Positions 1 through 30,521 of a stretch of DNA of 32,000 nt are shown here, in pieces (the first letter of the stretch is position 1; the number at the start of each line of letters is the position of its first letter). The notes under the pieces were generated by a model. The model worked only from the letters and a program-made list of their open reading frames with translations. It was not told the origin of the DNA and did not search any database. Location: NCBI RefSeq assembly GCF_000698785.1, contig NZ_CP007536.1, forward strand, positions 2,100,001 through 2,132,000, written 5' to 3'. The stretch comes from Nitrososphaera viennensis EN76. Its GTDB lineage: Archaea > Thermoproteota > Nitrososphaeria > Nitrososphaerales > Nitrososphaeraceae. Both the position numbers and the translations under genes were made by a program.

Positions 1-385
1 CCGCGTAAAAAGGCTTCCAAATGTGTCCGTTTATGTCCTGGAAGGCGCGACCGTACATCCAGCCATAGTCTTGCGCTTCTCTGTATTCAGAGCCTCCGGC
101 TGCCACGGCTTTCTTGATCATCTCGTCAACTTTTGCACGACTTTCAAGGGACAGCGCAACTAACGACTCGGTGCTTTTGCTAGAGTCGCAGATCTCTCTG
201 CCCGGTATGAAGCTCTTGAAGAACTTTTCAGTCAACAGCATGGCGTAAATGTCCTCGCTGATCACCATGCAGGCGGCGTTCTCGTCGGTAAACATTGGGT
301 TGAACCCGAATCCCAGATTGCCAAAAAACTCCATCGTCTTTTTGAGGTCTTTGACTGGCAGGTTGACGAATATCTTGGTACTCAT
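1..385 (-). CDS. VOC/glyoxalase-fold family protein; 3' end runs off the window start
   Basis: Absent from the ORF track because it is open at the window edge. My translation from the ATG at 385..383 reads MSTKIFVNLPVKDLKKTMEFFGNLGFGFNPMFTDENAACMVISEDIYAMLL...QDYGWMYGRAFQDINGHIW, a pattern typical of small VOC-fold proteins. Confidence 0.75.
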   Translation of the reverse strand, partial: MSTKIFVNLPVKDLKKTMEFFGNLGFGFNPMFTDENAACMVISEDIYAMLLTEKFFKSFIPGREICDSSKSTESLVALSLESRAKVDEMIKKAVAAGGSEYREAQDYGWMYGRAFQDINGHIWKPFYA

Positions 386-613
386 ATGTTCCCTGTAGCA
401 AATAGCCTAAAAGCAATTGCCCCCCCCCACAAGGAGAGGCTCTTCCCGTAAAACACGTCGTTTATCTTCCAGAAAGTACGTCACTATCAACCCGGTCGTG
501 CACATAGACAAGGAGAGCAATAACTTGGAAGAGGCCGAGGTACTTGGCGTGCAAAAGGATGACTATGTTATCTATGGCAGCGCAGTTGAACAACATAAAA
601 AGGGAGAAGGGAA

Positions 614-1015
614 CTAGGCACGGAAGAGTTGGCACGTCTTATCTTTGTGCATATCTCTCAGCCAATCTACGTGGGCCTTGTTTGTTATCTTGTTGCCGTC
701 CAACACAGTTTTCTTGCCATCGGTCAGCTTGCTTCCGACCAGAATCTCCTCTTTTCGGATAGACTCGTCTGGACCGAACTCCACAGTTAACCTGAGGAAA
801 TTCTTCCGATTGTCATATATGTTCACAAGCTCGTATTCTGTAAAGTCGGCATCGTGCTTCTTGTCGTGAATTGTGGATATTTCCTTGAAGATTAGTCTTG
901 ATTTTGGAGGCATTTTTGTCCGCGCCAATTCGCTCAAGAGTGATGCGTTCTTTTTCCAGAATGGTCCTAGTTCCATTCGACGAACTTTCTGGGTTGTTAT
1001 CGCTGCAGAAGACAT
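614..1015 (-). CDS. hypothetical protein
   Basis: 133-aa ORF with protein-like K/E/D-rich composition. I recognise no motif. A TATA-like TATAATATT lies just upstream, so the real start may be the internal Met14. Confidence 0.5.
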   Translation of the reverse strand: MSSAAITTQKVRRMELGPFWKKNASLLSELARTKMPPKSRLIFKEISTIHDKKHDADFTEYELVNIYDNRKNFLRLTVEFGPDESIRKEEILVGSKLTDGKKTVLDGNKITNKAHVDWLRDMHKDKTCQLFRA

Positions 1016-1058
1016 GCAATATTATACTCAGGCTTTGATTTAACCGATTTGTCTGCAG

Positions 1059-1081
1059 TGGCTTTTCAAAAAGTCAGAAGT
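1059..1081. repeat. copy 1 of a shared intergenic element, TGGCTTT-T-CAAAAAGTCAGAAGT
   Basis: 22 of its positions recur at 23477..23501 with a 1-versus-3 nt indel. Both copies lie 43-50 nt upstream of a minus-strand start codon. Confidence 0.5.
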
Positions 1082-1093
1082 CTCATAAGATGG

Positions 1094-1318
1094 CTAATTC
1101 GAGCTGCGCATGTCTACATAGGCCACTCTGACAGTCTTTATCTTGTACTTCATCAATCTAGATCTGGTCCGCAGCCGATAGTTGCAACATGGACGATTAG
1201 GACCCATCCATGTAATGAATATGTCGCATATCCTGCAGCGCTTTTGCCCTGCTGCATATCTTATCCCATCCGTAGGCCTAGTCGCCCTGTGCCGAACACA
1301 GATATTCCTGCAACTCAT
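1094..1318 (-). CDS. small zinc-finger/zinc-ribbon protein (CxxxC...CxxC...CC)
   Basis: Taking Met12 of the track ORF gives MSCRNICVRH...GQKRCRICDIFITWMGPNRPCCNYRLRTRSR. This start forms an ATGA overlap (1315..1318) with the stop of the upstream ORF. The cysteine pairs are spaced as in zinc ribbons. Confidence 0.55.
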   Translation of the reverse strand: MSCRNICVRHRATRPTDGIRYAAGQKRCRICDIFITWMGPNRPCCNYRLRTRSRLMKYKIKTVRVAYVDMRSSN

Positions 1319-1632
1319 TGCCAGTAAGGGTAGACCTCGCCACCAAGCCACTTTATGTCTCTGTCAGCAGCTATAGCCATTACCGTTTCTAGGTCAGATT
1401 GCAGATCTATCTGATAGTGGCCGTGTCCATGATTGTTTGGAAATCTGCCTACAAGATAGTGCATCTGTTTCGACTTGCCATCTTTATTGATCCCCTGAAT
1501 GTAATGGATTTCAAGAAAGAACCTCTGTTTTCTCTCGCGGGGTATTTTCTTTTCAGCATCGAGGACTTTATGAGCAGGAACGGGTCGATGTTCTGCCACC
1601 TTCTCTGAAGCGACGCTACAATGCTGTCGCAC
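1315..1632 (-). CDS. hypothetical protein, translationally coupled to the zinc-finger gene
   Basis: 105-aa ORF. Its stop overlaps the downstream ATG (ATGA). I recognise no family. Confidence 0.45.
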   Translation of the reverse strand: MRQHCSVASEKVAEHRPVPAHKVLDAEKKIPRERKQRFFLEIHYIQGINKDGKSKQMHYLVGRFPNNHGHGHYQIDLQSDLETVMAIAADRDIKWLGGEVYPYWQ

Positions 1633-1802
1633 TCTTGTGTCACGTGTTCTACAGACATGGGCAAGGTGGATAGATCACATATTTTCAAGAGGTAGGATTG
1701 CACTGTACCTCATTGCACGCAATATTTGGCAAGATGAAGGGTGTACGGGAAACAGAAAACCCTAGACGGCTACAGGGTTAAAGGATGGACACCGTCTAAC
1801 TG

Positions 1803-1849
1803 CAGCCGTTGCAGGCCTGACTTGGACCCTTAAAGGCCTGCGACGGCTG
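1803..1849. other. 15-bp stem hairpin (CAGCCGTTGCAGGCC / GGCCTGCGACGGCTG) with a 17-nt loop
   Basis: Read directly from the sequence. Arm one is 1803..1817 and arm two is 1835..1849. The single non-complementary position is T opposite G, a G-U wobble on the + strand RNA. Smaller hairpins flank it (AACCCT/AGGGTT, CCCTTGCAAGGG). Confidence 0.6.
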
Positions 1850-1886
1850 ACCGGAACCCTTGCAAGGGCAACCCTGTAAGCTGCAG

Positions 1887-1903
1887 GTATACAGTGCATT
1901 GCA
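1887..1903 (-). repeat. motif copy in inverted orientation (reverse complement TGCAATGCACTGTATAC, 15/17 match)
   Basis: The + strand reads GTATACAGTGCATTGCA. Its reverse complement differs at 2 positions from TGCAATGCAGTGTACAC. Confidence 0.6.
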
Positions 1904-2006
1904 AAACCTGCCAACATGCATTAGCTGCAAAACCTTCCGCGGACCTGATTTGTCATGCAGTGCAGACATATCATATATACTTGAAAGGGGTCTCTGTCAG
2001 ACCTGC

Positions 2007-2309
2007 ATGTCTGACGTGGATGAAGAACTATGCAAGGAAGAAGTCATGGCATTGGACGGAGCGATAGGATTTGCGGCTATGGTCAATAACCTCCGCAGAT
2101 TGTTGCGAGTGAGTACAGAATCGGACAAATTCCCTTACTGACAACTTAGGATAGATCTCAGCGAGGCACTCGAACCAAAGCTAGGAAGAACGATCTATAC
2201 ACTTGCAATGTATGAAAAGATAAAGCGGGTTGCAATCCTGCCGGCAGGCAACTTCATTTTCATGGTGTCTTTTGACCTGCAGCCCGACCACGAAACCATT
2301 ATCCTATAA
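2007..2309 (+). pseudogene. decayed paralogue of the IRFAG-motif small protein family, with an in-frame TGA at 2139..2141
   Basis: The single-frame translation is MSDVDEELCKEEVMALDGAIGFAAMVNN...FPY*QLRIDLSEALEPKLGRTIYTLAMYEKIKRVAILPAGNFIFMVSFD. It aligns with 2738..3107 (SEFCKLVLDLDPGIRFAGIVE...ELGKALYSITTYEKVKRATIP...LLLVSFD). The middle is about 20 aa shorter and interrupted by a stop. Confidence 0.6.
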
Positions 2310-2472
2310 AGGATAGCGCCGCTATTGAAAAGGCAGGGTTTGTTAATTGACCATCCAAATTACAGTCAACGATATTGCTAATTCATGCCAAGTTTTGTTT
2401 CGTAATCTGCCACTAGCATCACAGCTTCTGACCTTACTGTAAGCAGGCATATTGTGAACCTGCGTTTCTGTA

Positions 2473-2485
2473 ATGCAGTGTACAC
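2473..2485 (+). repeat. motif copy ATGCAGTGTACAC
   Basis: Exact 13-mer, followed after 7 nt by TTATAGAATAAAG. Confidence 0.8.
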
Positions 2486-2737
2486 GCGCTGCTTATAGAA
2501 TAAAGTAGCACGAGCCTACCGGTAGGCAGATAGACATGGTCAAATTGGTCCTGCTCCGCAACTCTCTTCTCCCAACGACTCGCAATACCATTGGAGCAGG
2601 ACCCTCCATGCGGTACCATGATGGTTGGATACAGACCTTCGTATGAAAAACCATATTGTCGAGGGGATCAGAAAGAATCATTGAAAAATTGGAATGTTTT
2701 CTGCTCTGCAGCACTCATGGTGTGGAGGACATAAAAA

Positions 2738-3107
2738 TATGTCATCAGAGTTTTGCAAACTAGTCCTTGATCTCGATCCAGGGATAAGATTTGCTGGCAT
2801 TGTAGAAACGAACGGCACTATTGTTGCTGCAGAATATCGAAAGGATATCGTCCCTCTACTTGATAGGAGTACACTCGAGATCTCTATTTTGCAATCTGTC
2901 ATTAGGTTCGCTACAAGAGAGATTCTCGAAAGTGAGCTAGGCAAGGCCCTGTATAGCATAACGACTTATGAAAAAGTAAAGCGAGCTACAATACCGATCC
3001 ATGGCGATGAACAAAGGCTTCTCCTTGTTTCTTTTGACACTACAGCTAGACCTGGACCTATTATAAGAAAAAAAATTATGCCCTTGATTGAGGAACGGTT
3101 ATCCTAG
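2738..3107 (+). CDS. small conserved hypothetical protein (IRFAG-motif family), paralogue of 12145..12669
   Basis: Start placed at the internal ATG (MSSEFCKLVLDLDPGIRFAGIVETNG...) by alignment to the N-terminus of 12145..12669 (MRAEQFSKNVLALNPRIRFAGVVEKSG...). The similarity continues through EIS..QS and ELG blocks. Confidence 0.75.
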
Positions 3108-3534
3108 GATTCCGTAGGTCAGGAACAGAGACTTGTCATCCGGCGTAACGCCGGCTGACTTTAGCCGTGGGCAGCTGACTATAGCGTAGCAGTCCTTCTT
3201 CAGGAAAAAACACAGGAACATAGACTCGTTCTCGCTGCTAAAGTCGTCCATGCCTGCCGGCAAATATCCGAAAGAAATGGAGATTCTTGCAGATCATGCT
3301 CTACCCGCACTAGATAGAGGGTGAAGTGGTATCCCGCAAGATACTTGACATGATGGGCATCATACCCTCAAAGCACGGTCACCATGACATTGTATTGCAT
3401 GCAAGCCTCGACACTGTGCTGACCATTGTCGCTCTGGTTGGAATCGACTGAATTTTAGAGGAGCGGTCTATCCAAACACATAGCAGCGAGCTCTAGCTAC
3501 TCTGCGTTCCAGAACATACGACTCCATCCGGCCG

Positions 3535-3741
3535 CTAATCTTCAGTGTGATGTGTCACACCGATCACCAGAAAGTCGCGCAACTCCAGATCAACCCGTTT
3601 CCCTATAAGGGATCCGAGCTTTCCCAGGTTGACATTTGCCTCGCATTCATAGTCCTCCTCAATCGACCTTCTGAGAATCCTGACAGTCTTGCTTTTTGTG
3701 TCCACCGACAACAGCTCGCCTCTTGCGCCGCTAAGTATCAT
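3535..3741 (-). CDS. hypothetical small protein
   Basis: 68-aa ORF with plausible composition (GELLSVDTKSKTVRILRRSIEEDYECEANVNLGKLGSLIGKRVDLELRDFLVIGV). A motif copy lies 58 nt upstream. No family recognised. Confidence 0.35.
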   Translation of the reverse strand: MILSGARGELLSVDTKSKTVRILRRSIEEDYECEANVNLGKLGSLIGKRVDLELRDFLVIGVTHHTED

Positions 3742-3798
3742 GCATCGCTGATAGGAGCATCCTGAATAAATCCTTAACAGAAATATAAGGTGAAAAAG

Positions 3799-3815
3799 TG
3801 CAATGCAGTGTACAC
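3799..3815 (+). repeat. motif copy TGCAATGCAGTGTACAC
   Basis: Exact 17-mer, identical to 4432..4448. It continues as TTGCA, giving the near-palindrome TGCAGTGTACACTTGCA. TATTTTTGAAC lies 16 nt downstream. Confidence 0.8.
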
Positions 3816-3879
3816 TTGCAACTTGTGTGTGTATTTTTGAACAGTGTCGAATAAGTATCCCTATCGAGTTGTCTGCTGT

Positions 3880-4179
3880 CTATGCACAATCTTGAATGTC
3901 CGCTACCGAAGACTTACCGATACTAGCATCCAAAGCCTTTAGGTTGGAGAATATCTGGTTACGGAATAGATCCTGATATGCTCGCCGCACAGACTCATTT
4001 CTGTTTCTTTGCCAGCTCGATTACTTTACTATCTGTCCTTTCAGGTCCATCTGGTTGGCAATATCCTGCAGGGTGTGGCCTCCTTCTTAGTGGTTCATAA
4101 TCTGCTCCATCTTCTACCTGTCAATTCTAATATGCACGAGCTTTGGAATATCCGCGTCAGGAATTCGACCTACATCGAT
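3880..4179 (-). pseudogene. decayed helix-turn-helix gene with in-frame stops and no frameshift
   Basis: The single minus-strand frame reads ...IPKLVHIRIDR*KMEQIMNH*EGGHTLQDIANQMDLKGQIVK*SSWQRNRNESVRRAYQDLFRNQIFSNLKALDASIGKSSVADIQDCA*. Stops are at 4114..4116 (TAG), 4087..4089 (TAA) and 4021..4023 (TAA). The GxTLQDIAxxM...V pattern is HTH-like. Confidence 0.4.
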
Positions 4180-4214
4180 TTATTCTTGAGAATTGCACTT
4201 TTACAAAAATCGCC

Positions 4215-4227
4215 ATGCAGTGTACAC
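4215..4227 (+). repeat. motif copy ATGCAGTGTACAC
   Basis: Exact 13-mer, followed after 4 nt by TATTTTTATGAG. Confidence 0.8.
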
Positions 4228-4431
4228 GCACTATTTTTATGAGACGTACCTTGGAAGAATCCCACACCAAAACAATTCAAGCGGTCACCGGCTCATCTCC
4301 GCCGCGGTCATCTCAGCACATGAAACTCCGTTGATGGCGGAGATGGGCCACAGAGTATCTGAAGGGAAAAGACAGCGTTTTATGACTAGTCTGAATGATC
4401 TGTGGTTTATGTCACTGGTTGCTTAGATTTT

Positions 4432-4448
4432 TGCAATGCAGTGTACAC
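4432..4448 (+). repeat. motif copy TGCAATGCAGTGTACAC
   Basis: Exact 17-mer, followed after 6 nt by TTTTTATTTTT. Confidence 0.8.
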
Positions 4449-4706
4449 GTCCTGTTTTTATTTTTCTCTTCGACAATTCGCGTCACCGATAGACGTTAGC
4501 CATATGGTCCCGGCCGGTCCAGCCAACCTGCGCTTTCCAAAACCGGCGGGGCCCTCATTCTTTCGGTCTCCGCAGCTGTCAAATATCTTCAGCGCGCTTT
4601 TGCCATGATTTGTCAGCGATATCTCGCTTTTTCTTTTCCAGTCTCTCTGACAATAATCGATGTGCTCTTTTATGGGTCGCCCGTGTATTTGAACCCATAA
4701 CGTGAA

Positions 4707-4780
4707 TGGGGCCAGTGGGATTTGAACCCACGACCTCCAGCGCCCCGGGCTGACATCCTTCCAAGCTAGACTATGGCCCC
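4707..4780 (-). tRNA. tRNA-Pro (anticodon GGG), 74 nt, no encoded CCA
   Basis: The reverse complement folds by hand as a cloverleaf: GGGGCCA TA GTCT AGCTTGGAA GGAT G TCAGC CCGGGGC GCTGG AGGTC GTGGG TTCAAAT CCCAC TGGCCCC A. A TATA-like TTTAATAG lies about 30 nt upstream. Position 33 reads C instead of the usual U. Confidence 0.85.
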
Positions 4781-4814
4781 ACTGGGGTGTCACGCTAGGC
4801 TACCTCTATTAAAC

Positions 4815-26430: not shown

Positions 26431-26440
26431 ATTTAATTAA
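26431..26440 (-). promoter_or_regulatory. TATA-like box of the rps6e operon
   Basis: + strand ATTTAATTAA, centred about 30 nt upstream of the rps6e ATG at 26405. It overlaps the stop codon of the HicB-like gene. Confidence 0.4.
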
Positions 26441-26685
26441 CCTTTGGCTTGCAGGTCTTGCGATATTGCTAGTTCTTTGACCTGCTGGTTCTTTATCATC
26501 TGCATTTCGTCAGGAAATGCATCCAGATAGCTGCGGACTGCCTTGTTTAGTTTATCTTCTATTTCCTTTGGCGTCTTTGCATACACCATGACCGCGGGTA
26601 TCTCTACACACTTGGCGATATAGGCGCCGTCCTTTTTCTTGAGGTGGTAGTGCAGAGTTGGCATATTCATACTGTCTTTGTGCAT
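26437..26685 (-). CDS. HicB-like (UPF0150) antitoxin-fold protein, no HicA partner seen
   Basis: LHYHLKKKDGAYIAKCVEIPAVMVYAKTPKEIEDKLNKAVRSYLDAF fits the HicB N-domain pattern (DG-Y-A-x-x-x-E-hP-G..G-T-xEA...A...YL). Confidence 0.6.
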   Translation of the reverse strand: MHKDSMNMPTLHYHLKKKDGAYIAKCVEIPAVMVYAKTPKEIEDKLNKAVRSYLDAFPDEMQMIKNQQVKELAISQDLQAKG

Positions 26686-26915: not shown

Positions 26916-27386
26916 GTGTCTGAAGGAGAGGTAGTAAAGAGCGAGCCCGATATTGAACTTGAGAGCCGGCGGGCAAAGGTGATCTCGCTTTACAGCAAGG
27001 GACAGAGCCAGGCCGAGATAGCGGCGAAACTGGGCGTGAACCAGTCTACTGTCAGCAGGGACTTGTACGAGATAAGGAAGCAGTCAAGAAAGACAGTAGA
27101 AGAGCACGTCGTCAAGGACGCGCTCTTTGAATACTATAGATGGGCGGCCGCTGTCGACGAGGTGACGAAAAAAGCATGGGAGATAGCAGAAGATGAAAAG
27201 GCCAGCCAAAAGTCAAGGATAGAGGCGCTAGCGTTTTTGATGAGCTGCTACAACAAGAGGCTGGAGGCGATGGTCGGAGGCCCTGCTTCCGGGTACGATG
27301 CGCAGCATCATGTGGAGGACATCTGGGCGCACAGGCGCGTCTACATGAAAAAGAAGTACCGCGGACCTTATGTGTACAAGGAGTGA
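26916..27386 (+). CDS. helix-turn-helix DNA-binding protein (sigma-r4/HTH_23-like N-domain plus helical C-domain)
   Basis: 156 aa. YSKGQSQAEIAAKLGVNQSTVSRDLYEIRKQ is a canonical HTH. The C-terminal half is helical. GTG start. Confidence 0.8.
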   Translation: MSEGEVVKSEPDIELESRRAKVISLYSKGQSQAEIAAKLGVNQSTVSRDLYEIRKQSRKTVEEHVVKDALFEYYRWAAAVDEVTKKAWEIAEDEKASQKSRIEALAFLMSCYNKRLEAMVGGPASGYDAQHHVEDIWAHRRVYMKKKYRGPYVYKE

Positions 27387-27447
27387 AACATGAAATAGGA
27401 GACTAGAATTATACGAGTTTGAACCTCTGATATGTCTTCTCACAATA

Positions 27448-28605
27448 CTATTCTTCTGGCTTTGAAGACTTCTGCTCAGTATTTGGGACAGTCTCACTCT
27501 CTTTAATGAGTTCCAAGATTGTCTTGTTCTTTGCTCTTCTTTCCTTAAATTTATCTTGAAGGGCTGCAAGACTCTGATCCATCTCTTGTTCCTTATCTTT
27601 ACTAATTGTGTACTCTATCCATTTTTTTCTTAGTTCTATTTCACGAGAGTCGGCTTTCTTTTTCTTTGACAGGATATGGTATCTTCTCTTTTCTAACTCA
27701 ATGGTAAGTTCCTTTTCTCGCATCTCAATGTATTTGATCTCGATAGCATGGTTCAAGATCTCGTCTGCAATTTTGCGGATTTCTTCTTCTTCAAGATAAT
27801 CAAATTCTCGCTTTGTGATTTCGAGAAAGTCATCAAAAGAAAATGTCCCATCTTTGTCTTCTCTGATTAACGTAAGTAGAGATAATTTTGCAAAGGGATG
27901 GCTTTCAACAAACACACTTTTGAATTCACTAGTTGTTGCTACGTTTGTGAGAATTCTGCTAAAATTTTTATCATGAAGCATTGTCTTGCCTGTCAGACCA
28001 TCTTCACTAGCCGGAGTCACTAATGCAAGTGTCTCTTTTCCGCCTGTTATGTCGATGCCAATTTCCCATATCTTTATCTGACCTCCCCTGCGCAACACTG
28101 TTTTCATCATATTATTTCCATTGGGCCATCCCACACCTATGACAAACTCGTTTGAATAATTAGAATTTTTCAGATAACGTGTTTTGATATATTCTGAATT
28201 CTTACCTATCACATCGATTCGTTCTTTCATTTCATCTACCACTCTTCCTGGATCATTTACTTGACCTTTAGCTTCCCCAAAGATCACCTTGGCGGGCAAA
28301 TTAGGATGATAAAGAAGAAAATCTGTGTTGGGCACATTTAATTCACGCAGCGGTGATGCTCTGAGGAAAGTATATCCATATTTCTGAATAGAATCATCCT
28401 GAGCAAATGGGAAAATGCAAGCATTCAGGATCATTCTATGATTCTGATCCTGTTTTATTCCTTCGAGCTTGCACTTAACAATCTCTAGTTCTTCTCTCTC
28501 GTACCTTTCCTCTATAGAACTCAATAATGATTTCTTCTCTTTTTTATACTCGTCAATAAGCTCAGGGAATGTCAGATATTCTATGAATTGGGAATCATTT
28601 AGCAA
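27448..28605 (-). CDS. uncharacterised protein with a PD-(D/E)xK-like nuclease signature and a C-terminal K/E-rich coiled coil
   Basis: A 385-aa ORF in about 30% GC DNA is unlikely by chance. NTD95FLLYHPNLPAKVIFGE111AK113G (nt 28267..28323) fits D-x15-ExK after a hydrophobic strand. The last ~110 aa are heptad-like (EKELTIELEKRR...KEQEMDQSLAALQDKFKERRAKNK). No Walker A motif. Confidence 0.85.
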   Translation of the reverse strand: MLNDSQFIEYLTFPELIDEYKKEKKSLLSSIEERYEREELEIVKCKLEGIKQDQNHRMILNACIFPFAQDDSIQKYGYTFLRASPLRELNVPNTDFLLYHPNLPAKVIFGEAKGQVNDPGRVVDEMKERIDVIGKNSEYIKTRYLKNSNYSNEFVIGVGWPNGNNMMKTVLRRGGQIKIWEIGIDITGGKETLALVTPASEDGLTGKTMLHDKNFSRILTNVATTSEFKSVFVESHPFAKLSLLTLIREDKDGTFSFDDFLEITKREFDYLEEEEIRKIADEILNHAIEIKYIEMREKELTIELEKRRYHILSKKKKADSREIELRKKWIEYTISKDKEQEMDQSLAALQDKFKERRAKNKTILELIKESETVPNTEQKSSKPEE

Positions 28606-29722
28606 TTATTGGTTCACTGAATGTGGCTAGCGTTGCAGAGTCATCAAAGTTTTCTACTATGGCGTTATAGAACTTGATAAATGATTCGAATGTTGTCCTG
28701 TGCTTTGGAATCAATGCAATCTCATTTTCGATTCCGCTAAGGCCAAAAACAGTACCCTTCTCCTCATCAACAACAGTAGCTCTAAACATCATAGGATCTT
28801 CTTGAATATAGGTATCAATAAATGAAAAGTCAGCTTCTATCTCAGACATCACATCAATATCCGAGTCAGACTGAATTCTCTCGTCTATTTCATTTTGCTT
28901 GAACATATTTCTTATCATTATCTCTGATAACTTGGTACGTGGAAGGATTATTTTCCCAGCTACAATTCTTGGAATATTGAATTCTCTGTCTCCTAGAGAT
29001 ACCTTTCTAGTAGTGGCATCAAACTTTTCTGAAGTATCGCGTATTACTGTCTGCTCTACAATAACTCTTTGAATAATCTCTTGGAGGATGCTGACTGTTT
29101 CTAAATTGGCCTGTCTCAACAAAAATAGGCCATCTCTGTTAATTTGTATTTTTGATTCTCCAATCTGCATATCTATTGACATCGGGATCACACCGTAAAG
29201 CGATTGTAATTCCTTAAGAGCTTCATTGGCATCATTTCCAGAATAGGAAATACGTCGGTCCTCGTCAGGTCTAATGCGTGCAGGCATCTTCCAATGACCA
29301 TACCTCCTGCTTATGAATCTGTAAATCTTCGCATCAAACTTGCTGACTAGGTAATTCTTCATATGATCTAATGTTATGGGTCTGATCCATGCAGGTGAGA
29401 TTCCTCTTCTTGCTCGAATAAACTGCTCGAGGGTCTTTTCATACAGTTTCTCTGTGGACGAGGTGAACATCATAAGTATACCTGGCGCCCATTCATATGC
29501 GTAGAAATCGACTACTTCATTCTTATTTGCAAATAAGATTTTAGTAATTTCTCCGTAATTTTCTGGATGAAGTTCTGTGAATGTAGTCTGCCAATCCTTT
29601 CTGACGTATAATAGGTGTCCCTTTAACCACTTGAGCTGACCCGGACCAAAAACATCCTCCTTATTTCTGGCAATGTACTCTAGGAATGTTTCCAGAGAGT
29701 AGCGTTGAGGAGGAATATTCAC
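28595..29722 (-). CDS. uncharacterised 375-aa protein, first gene of the two-gene operon
   Basis: Long ORF in AT-rich DNA. GTG start preceded by GGTGA (SD-like) 7 nt upstream. 11-nt overlap with the downstream gene. No NTPase or other motif recognised. Acidic cluster SDSDIDVMSEIEADFSFID. Confidence 0.85.
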   Translation of the reverse strand: MNIPPQRYSLETFLEYIARNKEDVFGPGQLKWLKGHLLYVRKDWQTTFTELHPENYGEITKILFANKNEVVDFYAYEWAPGILMMFTSSTEKLYEKTLEQFIRARRGISPAWIRPITLDHMKNYLVSKFDAKIYRFISRRYGHWKMPARIRPDEDRRISYSGNDANEALKELQSLYGVIPMSIDMQIGESKIQINRDGLFLLRQANLETVSILQEIIQRVIVEQTVIRDTSEKFDATTRKVSLGDREFNIPRIVAGKIILPRTKLSEIMIRNMFKQNEIDERIQSDSDIDVMSEIEADFSFIDTYIQEDPMMFRATVVDEEKGTVFGLSGIENEIALIPKHRTTFESFIKFYNAIVENFDDSATLATFSEPIIAK

Positions 29723-29758
29723 ATGTGGTCACCGAAGGAGAGTATAAGATTTCCTTGG

Positions 29759-29776
29759 GCTTATATGAATATAAGC
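29759..29776. promoter_or_regulatory. inverted repeat GCTTATAT-GA-ATATAAGC overlapping a TATA-like sequence upstream of the operon
   Basis: 8+8 nt perfect arms, centred 45 nt upstream of the GTG at 29722. Confidence 0.5.
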
Positions 29777-29843: not shown

Positions 29844-30116
29844 TCAAAAATCCATTATCGCTTTAACCAGCGGGCTATCCCTGTTTACCCTGTACAACTT
29901 AGTCTTACGTACAGTCCTGCAGACCTCGACTATCTTCTCTTCCTCCAAAAGCTCAAAATATTTGTTAAAAGTCTCGCTGTTCATGTCAAGGGCTTGCCTC
30001 AATTCCCTCTTTGTAAACTCGCTTGCAGGAAAGTTCAACATGCAGTCAAGAATCTTGATGTTGTGCGTATAACCAAAAGTCCTTGACAAGAGCGACAGGA
30101 ATTCCATGTAGCTCAT
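29844..30116 (-). CDS. winged-helix transcriptional regulator (small archaeal wHTH)
   Basis: From Met64 of the track ORF: MSYMEFLSLLSRTFGYTHNIKILDCMLNFPASEFTKRELRQALDMNSETFNKYFELLEEEKIVEVCRTVRKTKLYRVN. This is an HTH plus wing (KLYRVN) layout. The upstream 63 aa of the track ORF look like the antisense of a + strand zinc-ribbon ORF. Confidence 0.7.
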   Translation of the reverse strand: MSYMEFLSLLSRTFGYTHNIKILDCMLNFPASEFTKRELRQALDMNSETFNKYFELLEEEKIVEVCRTVRKTKLYRVNRDSPLVKAIMDF

Positions 30117-30338: not shown

Positions 30339-30521
30339 TTAGAAGGGATTTTTGTCCCAGTTCATCTGATAATCGTCGGCCATCGTCACGGCTTTGCCTT
30401 TCATCAATTCAATATATTCGTCGTACGTAGCCGAGTAGCCGCAGAAGTCGCACCTGACGTTTGCCATGTCGTCATCGACCTGCGCCTTTTTTCCGCACTT
30501 GGGGCACTTGGCTTCAAGCAC
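30339..30521 (-). CDS. small zinc-ribbon protein (60 aa)
   Basis: MLEAKCPKCGKKAQVDDDMANVRCDFCGYSATYDEY..., with two CxxCG knuckles. Confidence 0.65.
   Translation of the reverse strand: MLEAKCPKCGKKAQVDDDMANVRCDFCGYSATYDEYIELMKGKAVTMADDYQMNWDKNPF

Follow-up and report, generated by a model that had tools for sequence, protein, structure and literature searches.

A two-gene archaeal cassette encoding a predicted PD-(D/E)xK nuclease and a TBP/Iml3-like partner in Nitrososphaera viennensis

A pair of overlapping genes on the minus strand

In a stretch of 32,000 nucleotides from the genome of Nitrososphaera viennensis EN76 (contig NZ_CP007536.1, positions 2,100,001 to 2,132,000; hereafter the window), two long reading frames on the minus strand form a compact gene pair, which we refer to as A and B. 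Gene A, the upstream member (28595..29722), starts with GTG and encodes 375 amino acids assigned to the Pfam family PF27341 (AF_0896_M), and gene B (27448..28605) starts with TTG and encodes 385 amino acids predicted to comprise a PD-(D/E)xK-type nuclease, a winged helix and a C-terminal helix. The two frames overlap by 11 nt (28595..28605), where A ends ...GCT AAA TGA and B begins TTG CTA AAT GAT, confirming what an earlier note on this DNA, made from the letters and their open reading frames, had described; the juxtaposition of stop and start suggests translational coupling. The two upstream signals pointed out in the same note can also be read in the sequence, on the same strand as the genes. 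A GGTGA Shine-Dalgarno-like site lies at 29729..29733, 6 nt ahead of the GTG of A, and a palindromic TATA-like element, GCTTATAT-TC-ATATAAGC, lies at 29759..29776, 37–54 nt upstream of the A start, and represents a putative archaeal promoter or operator. A promoter/terminator scan was also run, but since it relies on bacterial consensus motifs its output carries no information here.

Both frames are likely to be read at full length. An open frame of 375 codons at 38% GC has a chance probability of ~7e-12 (order 1e-11), and both proteins have been deposited in their long forms as N. viennensis hypothetical proteins (A, AIC16805.1/WP_075055484.1; B, AIC16804.1/WP_075055483.1). Because the starts are non-ATG, some automatic public gene calls shorten B and A to 260 and 255 aa, respectively, by using internal ATG codons (proteins P0001 and P0016), and the 260-aa call of B would lose the entire D..ExK motif described below. 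Homologues align from the first residue, and the long GTG- and TTG-start forms are therefore supported. A 113-aa ORF (27228-27569) that overlaps both B and the next gene, which encodes a helix-turn-helix (HTH) protein, was assumed to be spurious.

Predicted structures of the two proteins

The evidence that B is a nuclease comes from conservation and from the predicted fold. In an alignment of 21 B sequences, the most distant at 27% identity, the residues that never vary are N61, P66, F67, P85, L86, E88, N93, D95, F96, G110, K113, R129, V155, W180, H211 and W329. They include most of the signature D95...E111-A-K113 (28267..28323, minus strand; ...DFLLY...KVIFGEAKG), with E88, N93 and R129 nearby. 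The earlier note had singled out this triad, following a hydrophobic strand, and it is conserved in all apparently intact homologues, position 111 being glutamate or aspartate in every copy but a frameshifted one from Nitrosopumilus (L017). Copies from Halobacteria retain it as PNFDFLLW...IFGEAKSS. The AlphaFold2 (AF2) model of B (pLDDT 87, pTM 0.81) begins with two long helices, followed by a predicted nuclease core at residues ~56-195 (28021..28440, minus strand) in the order helix, three strands, helix, strand, helix, strand. The core elements are strands 79-83, 96-100 and 105-113, then helix 119-135 and strand 150-159, and finally helix 160-172 with strand 177-184; D95 opens strand 96-100, and E111 and K113 close strand 105-113. 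In the model, this is the canonical alpha-beta-beta-beta-alpha-beta order of restriction endonucleases with the triad on strands 2 and 3, and the model thus has the topology that the note had proposed. Whole-chain Foldseek searches gave nothing significant, and the nuclease-type matches, all of them to PD-(D/E)xK proteins, were weak (BsmI, E=0.05; XisH; YaeQ; an MmcB-like viral protein). The sequence hallmark of the PD-(D/E)xK superfamily, an acidic residue at the start of strand 2 with (D/E)xK in strand 3, is found in B and conserved in its homologues. Judged by motif and model together, B is likely to be a PD-(D/E)xK nuclease and presumably carries out metal-dependent DNA cleavage.

Downstream of the core lies a winged-helix-like domain at residues ~237-311 (27673..27897, minus strand), with predicted helices 237-246, 257-267 and 273-289 and strands 254-256, 293-295 and 308-311, a unit that Foldseek matches to forkhead and PadR winged helices (probabilities of 0.6-0.9). 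The charged C-terminal helices that follow (residues 318-372; 27490..27654, minus strand) consist of one long helix of ~42 aa (318-359), which bears the invariant W329, and a short one (363-372), and on the model they are a probable oligomerisation or docking element. These two helices and the winged helix before them replace the coiled-coil tail of about 110 aa that had been read from the sequence.

With members of the PD-(D/E)xK superfamily such as Mrr/type IV enzymes, XisH, YaeQ and BsmI, B shares the D...(D/E)xK arrangement on strands 2 and 3, to which it adds an extra conserved glutamate, E88, and it combines a nuclease with a winged helix as Mrr-type enzymes do. It differs in having an obligatory partner gene and, from the Mrr type, in a winged helix that is C-terminal to the core. 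Mrr-type enzymes carry their winged helix N-terminal to the nuclease domain. No nuclease family of Pfam, NCBIfam or PADLOC matches B, whether by sequence or by profile, and an hhalign comparison with a neighbouring Mrr_cat protein shows no similarity.

Searches of Pfam-A, NCBIfam, PADLOC and PHROGs returned no family for B, and a Pfam scan of 21 members of the B family produced scattered chance matches only. The 5027 models of PADLOC-DB v2.0.0, run against 21 B and 22 A sequences, likewise gave no family and only chance-level matches (E>=0.014), each in a single sequence (1/21 or 1/22). Two of the weak PADLOC matches, PDC-M01B and SngA, were considered as candidates and rejected, since scans of the whole families gave scattered chance matches only. 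Profile searches of A and B against PDB sequences found nothing relevant. Neither protein has a Walker A motif by regular-expression search, as the earlier note had said. Searches of Pfam, NCBIfam, PADLOC and PDB sequences and Foldseek comparisons linked neither one confidently to a family of housekeeping or virion proteins, whereas such matches for both proteins would, according to the note, have refuted its reading.

The note had also called the pair unrecognisable and its upstream protein an orphan, which does not hold for A. The Pfam-A set scanned here lacks PF27341, and the membership of A is taken from precomputed annotation, in which the family is assigned to a gene identical to that of the window (L006/L007) and to 54 of the 56 homologues recovered by a word-indexed search. 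When 1.84 billion representatives were searched exhaustively by profile, 232 A clusters were detected at E<=0.001, 82 of them with E<1e-30. Full-length members are mostly ~350-390 aa, with no sign of domain fusions among the cluster representatives, and A also matches an unannotated phage orthologous group, phrog_24372 (E=6e-24). PF27341 is named after AF_0896 of Archaeoglobus fulgidus and carries no functional annotation; a literature search for AF0896 or for the accessions of A and B found no paper on these genes.

The AlphaFold2 model of A (pLDDT 88, pTM 0.85) consists of three successive sheet-plus-helix modules. Its top Foldseek matches are Iml3/CENP-L (4it3, E=6.3e-4, probability 0.98) and 4je3_A (probability 0.97), with lower-scoring matches to TBP and to the TBP-like N-terminal domains of RnlA. 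The model thus indicates that A is built of TBP/Iml3-like alpha/beta modules, a likeness of fold class and not of family membership. Repeated modules of beta-sheet plus helix are also shared with the RnlA/LsoA toxins, TBP, Iml3/CENP-L and the N-terminal domain of RNase HIII, but the TM-scores are low (0.2-0.3), and A lacks a HEPN domain and resembles none of these proteins in sequence.

Among 22 aligned A sequences, reaching down to 18% identity, no variation is seen at G57, Y160, D164, G198, D319, P339 or D360, and conservation is 90% or higher at R151, R156, G162 and E171. The most conserved polar motif, RPxxxRRISYSGxDA...E at residues 151-171 (29210..29272, minus strand), contains R151, R156, Y160, G162, D164 and E171, and its R-R-Y-D residues look like a candidate ligand, nucleic-acid or active site rather than mere scaffold. 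An acidic cluster elsewhere in A had been put forward as a possible metal site. This cluster (residues 285-303) falls in an acidic loop, placed at residues 279-296 (28835..28888, minus strand), that is modelled with pLDDT <50, differs in length between homologues and is missing from many of them, and the idea of metal binding was rejected because the loop is disordered and unconserved.

The fold of A bears on one alternative to the conflict function considered below, namely that the pair is an accessory of replication, recombination or partition, with A a TBP-fold DNA-processing protein that would use Tyr160 as a catalytic residue and B an origin- or centromere-binding winged-helix nuclease or resolvase. 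The Rep_trans/Rep-Arvir initiators (DUF7845, PF02486) of archaeal viruses and plasmids, including pleolipoviruses, have a TBP-like fold followed by winged helices (PMC13107129), and the invariant tyrosine of A is flanked by conserved arginine. However, Rep proteins are absent from the top Foldseek matches of A, A has no Pfam match to DUF7845 or Rep_trans, and hhalign finds no profile similarity (probability 0.1%) to the DUF7845 Rep of Harhisp1, a virus that carries a divergent version of the pair. The winged helix also sits on B in the cassette of the window and not on A, unlike the arrangement in Rep-Arvir. We consider an analogy of this kind improbable, and further evidence on it comes from the elements that carry the pair.

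Distribution and genomic neighbourhoods of the pair

The two genes occur together almost wherever they are found, as the earlier note had expected of a functional pair. A homologue of B follows A immediately and in the same orientation at 18 of the 19 loci fetched first, at all 31 additional metagenome loci, and on five halobacterial megaplasmids (hhalign probability for B, 99.9%). The 11-nt overlap with a TTG start recurs at three loci (L008, L021 and L023), and three others have overlaps of 8-26 nt (L001, L004 and L020). Sequence identity to the proteins of the window, compared over 14 lineages, is correlated between A and B (Spearman 0.93), with A always the better conserved of the two (31-81% for A, 29-66% for B); B also has fewer detectable relatives than A, and no Pfam family. 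The hosts are Nitrososphaeraceae, Gagatemarchaeum, Nitrosopumilus, Bathyarchaeia, Thermoplasmata, Methanomassiliicoccales and Halobacteria. A pattern scan of one genome per species for 185,579 species, which detects close relatives only, returned 8 loci, and scans of IMG/VR with A, B and their halobacterial and viral homologues, subject to the same limit, returned no relatives. The pair is a widespread but patchy archaeal two-gene cassette, horizontally acquired and co-diverging as a unit.

The same data bear on a housekeeping role in DNA repair or chromatin of the host, for which one might cite the weak resemblance of B to repair-type PD-(D/E)xK proteins (MmcB-like and "DNA repair protein" matches) and the location of some copies among translation and repair genes. 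Against such a role stand the patchy distribution (8 loci in the scan for close relatives), the foreign codon composition, the varying neighbourhoods, in which the same protein may occupy different contexts, the copies on plasmids and in a virus, and the existence of pseudogenised copies; we regard it as very improbable.

In two lineages the downstream gene has decayed while its partner is intact. A Halapricum copy of B (L027, 9102-10217) has an in-frame stop at the invariant W180, and the Nitrosopumilus copy (L017, 11080-12118) has a frameshift together with E111K. One further lineage (L015 and L022) holds A alone, next to ProRS. Decay of B beside an intact A hints that B is the costly partner, and it favours the possibility that the pair is an addiction module resembling a toxin-antitoxin system, in which A would restrain a toxic nuclease, B, which would be freed to kill the cell once the element was lost, and chromosomal copies would be stranded remnants. 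The order of the genes, with the inhibitor first, and their overlap fit a type II toxin-antitoxin system, and copies are found on plasmids, in a provirus and on integrase-bearing elements, as well as near toxin-antitoxin genes (RelE/CopG, Doc and HicB-like). Antitoxins are usually small and fast-evolving. A is atypical in this respect, being as large as B (375 aa) and slower to evolve; its invariant polar cluster also suggests an activity of its own, and many copies are chromosomal, residing in defence islands or at bare sites. Weighing these points, we judge addiction to be an unlikely explanation of the pair as a whole, although an addiction module could at the same time serve in abortive-infection defence.

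Elsewhere, the pair repeatedly sits in defence islands and mobile elements, and here too the expectation raised from the sequence of the window was borne out at many loci. Within ~8 kb of the pair we found Mrr_cat (L008), a PLD nuclease and an RNase_H_2-domain protein (L014), an SF1 helicase and PLD (L016), Fic (L021), a helicase-related protein with a PD-(D/E)XK family protein (L025), and Doc toxin with GIY-YIG (L028). At L019, an OLD-family nuclease is directly upstream and AddAB-like genes and SNF2 with DUF1156 lie nearby; at L026, DUF499-DUF1156 is directly downstream and a restriction endonuclease is close; and L027 has AddB/UvrD, an AAA protein with a restriction endonuclease, and DUF1156. 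McrBC-like genes are also among the defence-type neighbours, and the pair is found within defence islands of megaplasmids of 400-600 kb. A further 13 loci are flanked by 90 ORFs, which include two N6_Mtase/Eco57I genes and one N6_N4_Mtase gene, two each for Endonuc_Holl and AAA_5, and housekeeping genes too. No conserved methyltransferase partner is adjacent to the pair in the window or at most loci, methylases being only occasional island neighbours.

One association was seen in three distant lineages, Methanomassiliicoccales, Halorubrum and Halapricum, where a DUF1156 (methylase-like) system with DUF499 and SNF2 adjoins the pair (L019, 12381-21080; L026, 8701-13961; L027, 14973-17077). At two of these three loci, AddAB-like nuclease-helicase genes lie on the opposite side of the pair.

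Other surroundings are those of mobile elements. Integrases lie near the pair at L001, L004 and L014, and nearby genes include one for a Cdc6-like ATPase at L001, those for a D5 primase and an HNH nuclease at L020, Prim-Pol at L030 and Baseplate_J at L018. At L023, the pair is a bare chromosomal insertion beside EF-2. Two loci with unrelated surroundings encode the identical A protein (P0019), one lying in a Prim-Pol element (L030, 1036-3249) and the other in a neighbourhood of response-regulator, aquaporin-family (MIP) and methyltransferase genes (L031, 8245-9862), which indicates that the cassette moved recently.

A very divergent homologous pair is encoded by the temperate pleolipovirus Harhisp1 (MW344767, 14549-16764 and 11924-13240; L024). 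By hhalign, HarHp1_105 matches A with a probability of 98.8%, and HarHp1_100 matches B with only ~65%. The viral pair adjoins an Orc1-type Rep gene and is near a RelE/CopG pair, and the virus encodes a genuine DUF7845 Rep (E=3e-124) besides it. Related divergent copies are present on two Haloarculaceae plasmids (L033, 5357-9165; L034, 3532-9111). This branch always stands beside a pentapeptide-repeat protein of ~440-510 aa, and Orc1/Cdc6 lies within 3 kb in two of the three cases.

These elements bear on the replication accessory introduced above. Orc1/Cdc6 adjoins the pair in Harhisp1 and on a Halomicrobium plasmid, and the Cdc6-like gene of L001, the Prim-Pol of L030 and the D5 primase of L020 are of the same tenor. 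The elements that carry the pair have replication proteins of their own, however, and the pair is therefore accessory there; it also persists undamaged in chromosomal insertions of 2.3 kb that bring no further genes of an element, and it resides in the defence islands of the large megaplasmids as well. We give the replication accessory little credence.

In the window itself, the pair stands by itself as an insertion between core genes, with S6e and eIF2-gamma on one side and DUF899 on the other. Its GC content (0.387 for A and 0.372 for B, higher than the 30–33% of an earlier hand count) compares with ~0.57 for the flanks and window core, and its GC content at third codon positions (GC3; 0.375 and 0.358) with ~0.7 for the adjacent genes. 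This foreign composition is limited to A, B and their spacers. S6e has a GC3 of 0.70, and the HTH gene (26916-27386; 0.675) and a Zn-ribbon gene (30339-30521; 0.705) are host-like. The small winged-helix gene upstream of the pair (29844..30116, minus strand; 90 aa, with weak winged-helix matches only) is intermediate (0.60); it may regulate the cassette, but it is not a conserved partner. The neighbours in the window do not recur beside the pair elsewhere, the sole similarity being a faint one between the small winged-helix gene and a neighbour at L020 (E=0.006). Because the foreign composition is confined to the pair and the neighbours are not recurrent, the proposal that dedicated regulators accompany the pair in a foreign island is unsupported; the foreign character of the pair and its spacers stands, and the HTH and Zn-ribbon genes are neither foreign in GC3 nor conserved partners. 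The acquired unit is essentially the 2.3-kb two-gene cassette.

No convincing att-like repeats, direct or inverted, turned up when the flanks of the insertion were searched. Farther along the minus strand is a HicB/UPF0150-like gene (26437-26685; 82 aa, GC 0.45, GC3 0.55; Pfam E=0.007, PHROG E=7e-4), and no neighbouring ORF of at least 50 aa could serve as its HicA partner. At the other end of the window, positions 1-4700 are low in GC (0.45-0.47), almost devoid of long ORFs, and abut tRNA-Pro(GGG) (4706-4781, minus strand), the tRNA-Pro being the sole match in an Rfam scan of the window. This region may represent the decayed remains of an integrated element, or else non-coding DNA that continues past the edge of the window.

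A possible conflict function

The explanation that we favour is that the pair is an undescribed nuclease-based archaeal conflict cassette, which would provide innate immunity to viruses and competing mobile elements or exclude them, and we consider the chances that it is correct to be about even. On this explanation, A and B would be made in approximately equal amounts and form a complex. A would be the sensing or regulating subunit, its concave TBP-like sheets and R/R/Y/D site binding a nucleic-acid feature or a small ligand. B would be the effector, with the winged helix binding DNA and a Mg2+-dependent cut made at D95/E111/K113. The outcome would be immunity or exclusion, conferred by a cassette carried in chromosomal defence islands, plasmids and proviruses. 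Since there is no conserved methyltransferase partner, discrimination of self from non-self would not be that of classical restriction-modification, and the pair differs from types I-III in lacking a conserved methyltransferase in the operon.

The resemblance to described systems is one of architecture. Like Hachiman HamA/HamB, Gabija GajA/GajB and McrBC, the pair is a compact operon of a nuclease effector and a partner of similar size, patchily distributed and located in defence islands and mobile elements, but A is neither a helicase nor an NTPase, and has a TBP/Iml3-like build instead. For practical purposes the pair can be likened to defence systems made of a nuclease gene and one partner gene, or to a large toxin-antitoxin pair, but it is a member of no described family. 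What is new is the A-type partner, which is undescribed in any defence system, whereas the kind of effector represented by B is known.

Several observations weigh against a conflict function. Neither protein is related to any of the PADLOC models, and the call of a defence system therefore comes from the neighbourhood alone. That neighbourhood was counted in the examined loci only; many loci hold replication genes of mobile elements in place of defence genes, and several copies lie among housekeeping genes. In addition, the B-like protein of the divergent branch in Harhisp1 and the plasmids has no D..ExK; this branch seems to have lost the motif, and nuclease activity may therefore not be essential in every member. 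A role in defence or maintenance is thus what we infer from guilt by association.

A bolder form of the conflict-cassette explanation can also be framed. The pair would be the founding example of an archaea-specific innate immune system in which a multi-module TBP/Iml3-like sensor with an Arg-Arg-Tyr-Asp site, of a kind that no described defence system employs, licenses a PD-(D/E)xK/winged-helix nuclease, and from which a nuclease-dead offshoot in Harhisp1 and the plasmids was put to new use alongside a pentapeptide-repeat (DNA-mimic-like) protein and Orc1/Cdc6. We offer this as a tentative scheme and consider it doubtful in full.

Apart from CRISPR and restriction-modification, the immune systems of archaea are poorly known, and in a 2026 survey nearly a third of archaeal genomes had no other detectable system (PMC12988326). 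The cassette is compact and easily tested, and it is present in the cultivated ammonia oxidiser N. viennensis as well as in tractable haloarchaea, on pHLAC01 of Halorubrum lacusprofundi (HLAC_RS16615/16610) and in the provirus Harhisp1 of Haloarcula hispanica. If the cassette stabilises mobile elements, it would help to explain the persistence of archaeal plasmids and proviruses. If it acts in defence, it would represent a new pairing of sensor and effector and provide a function for the Pfam family PF27341.

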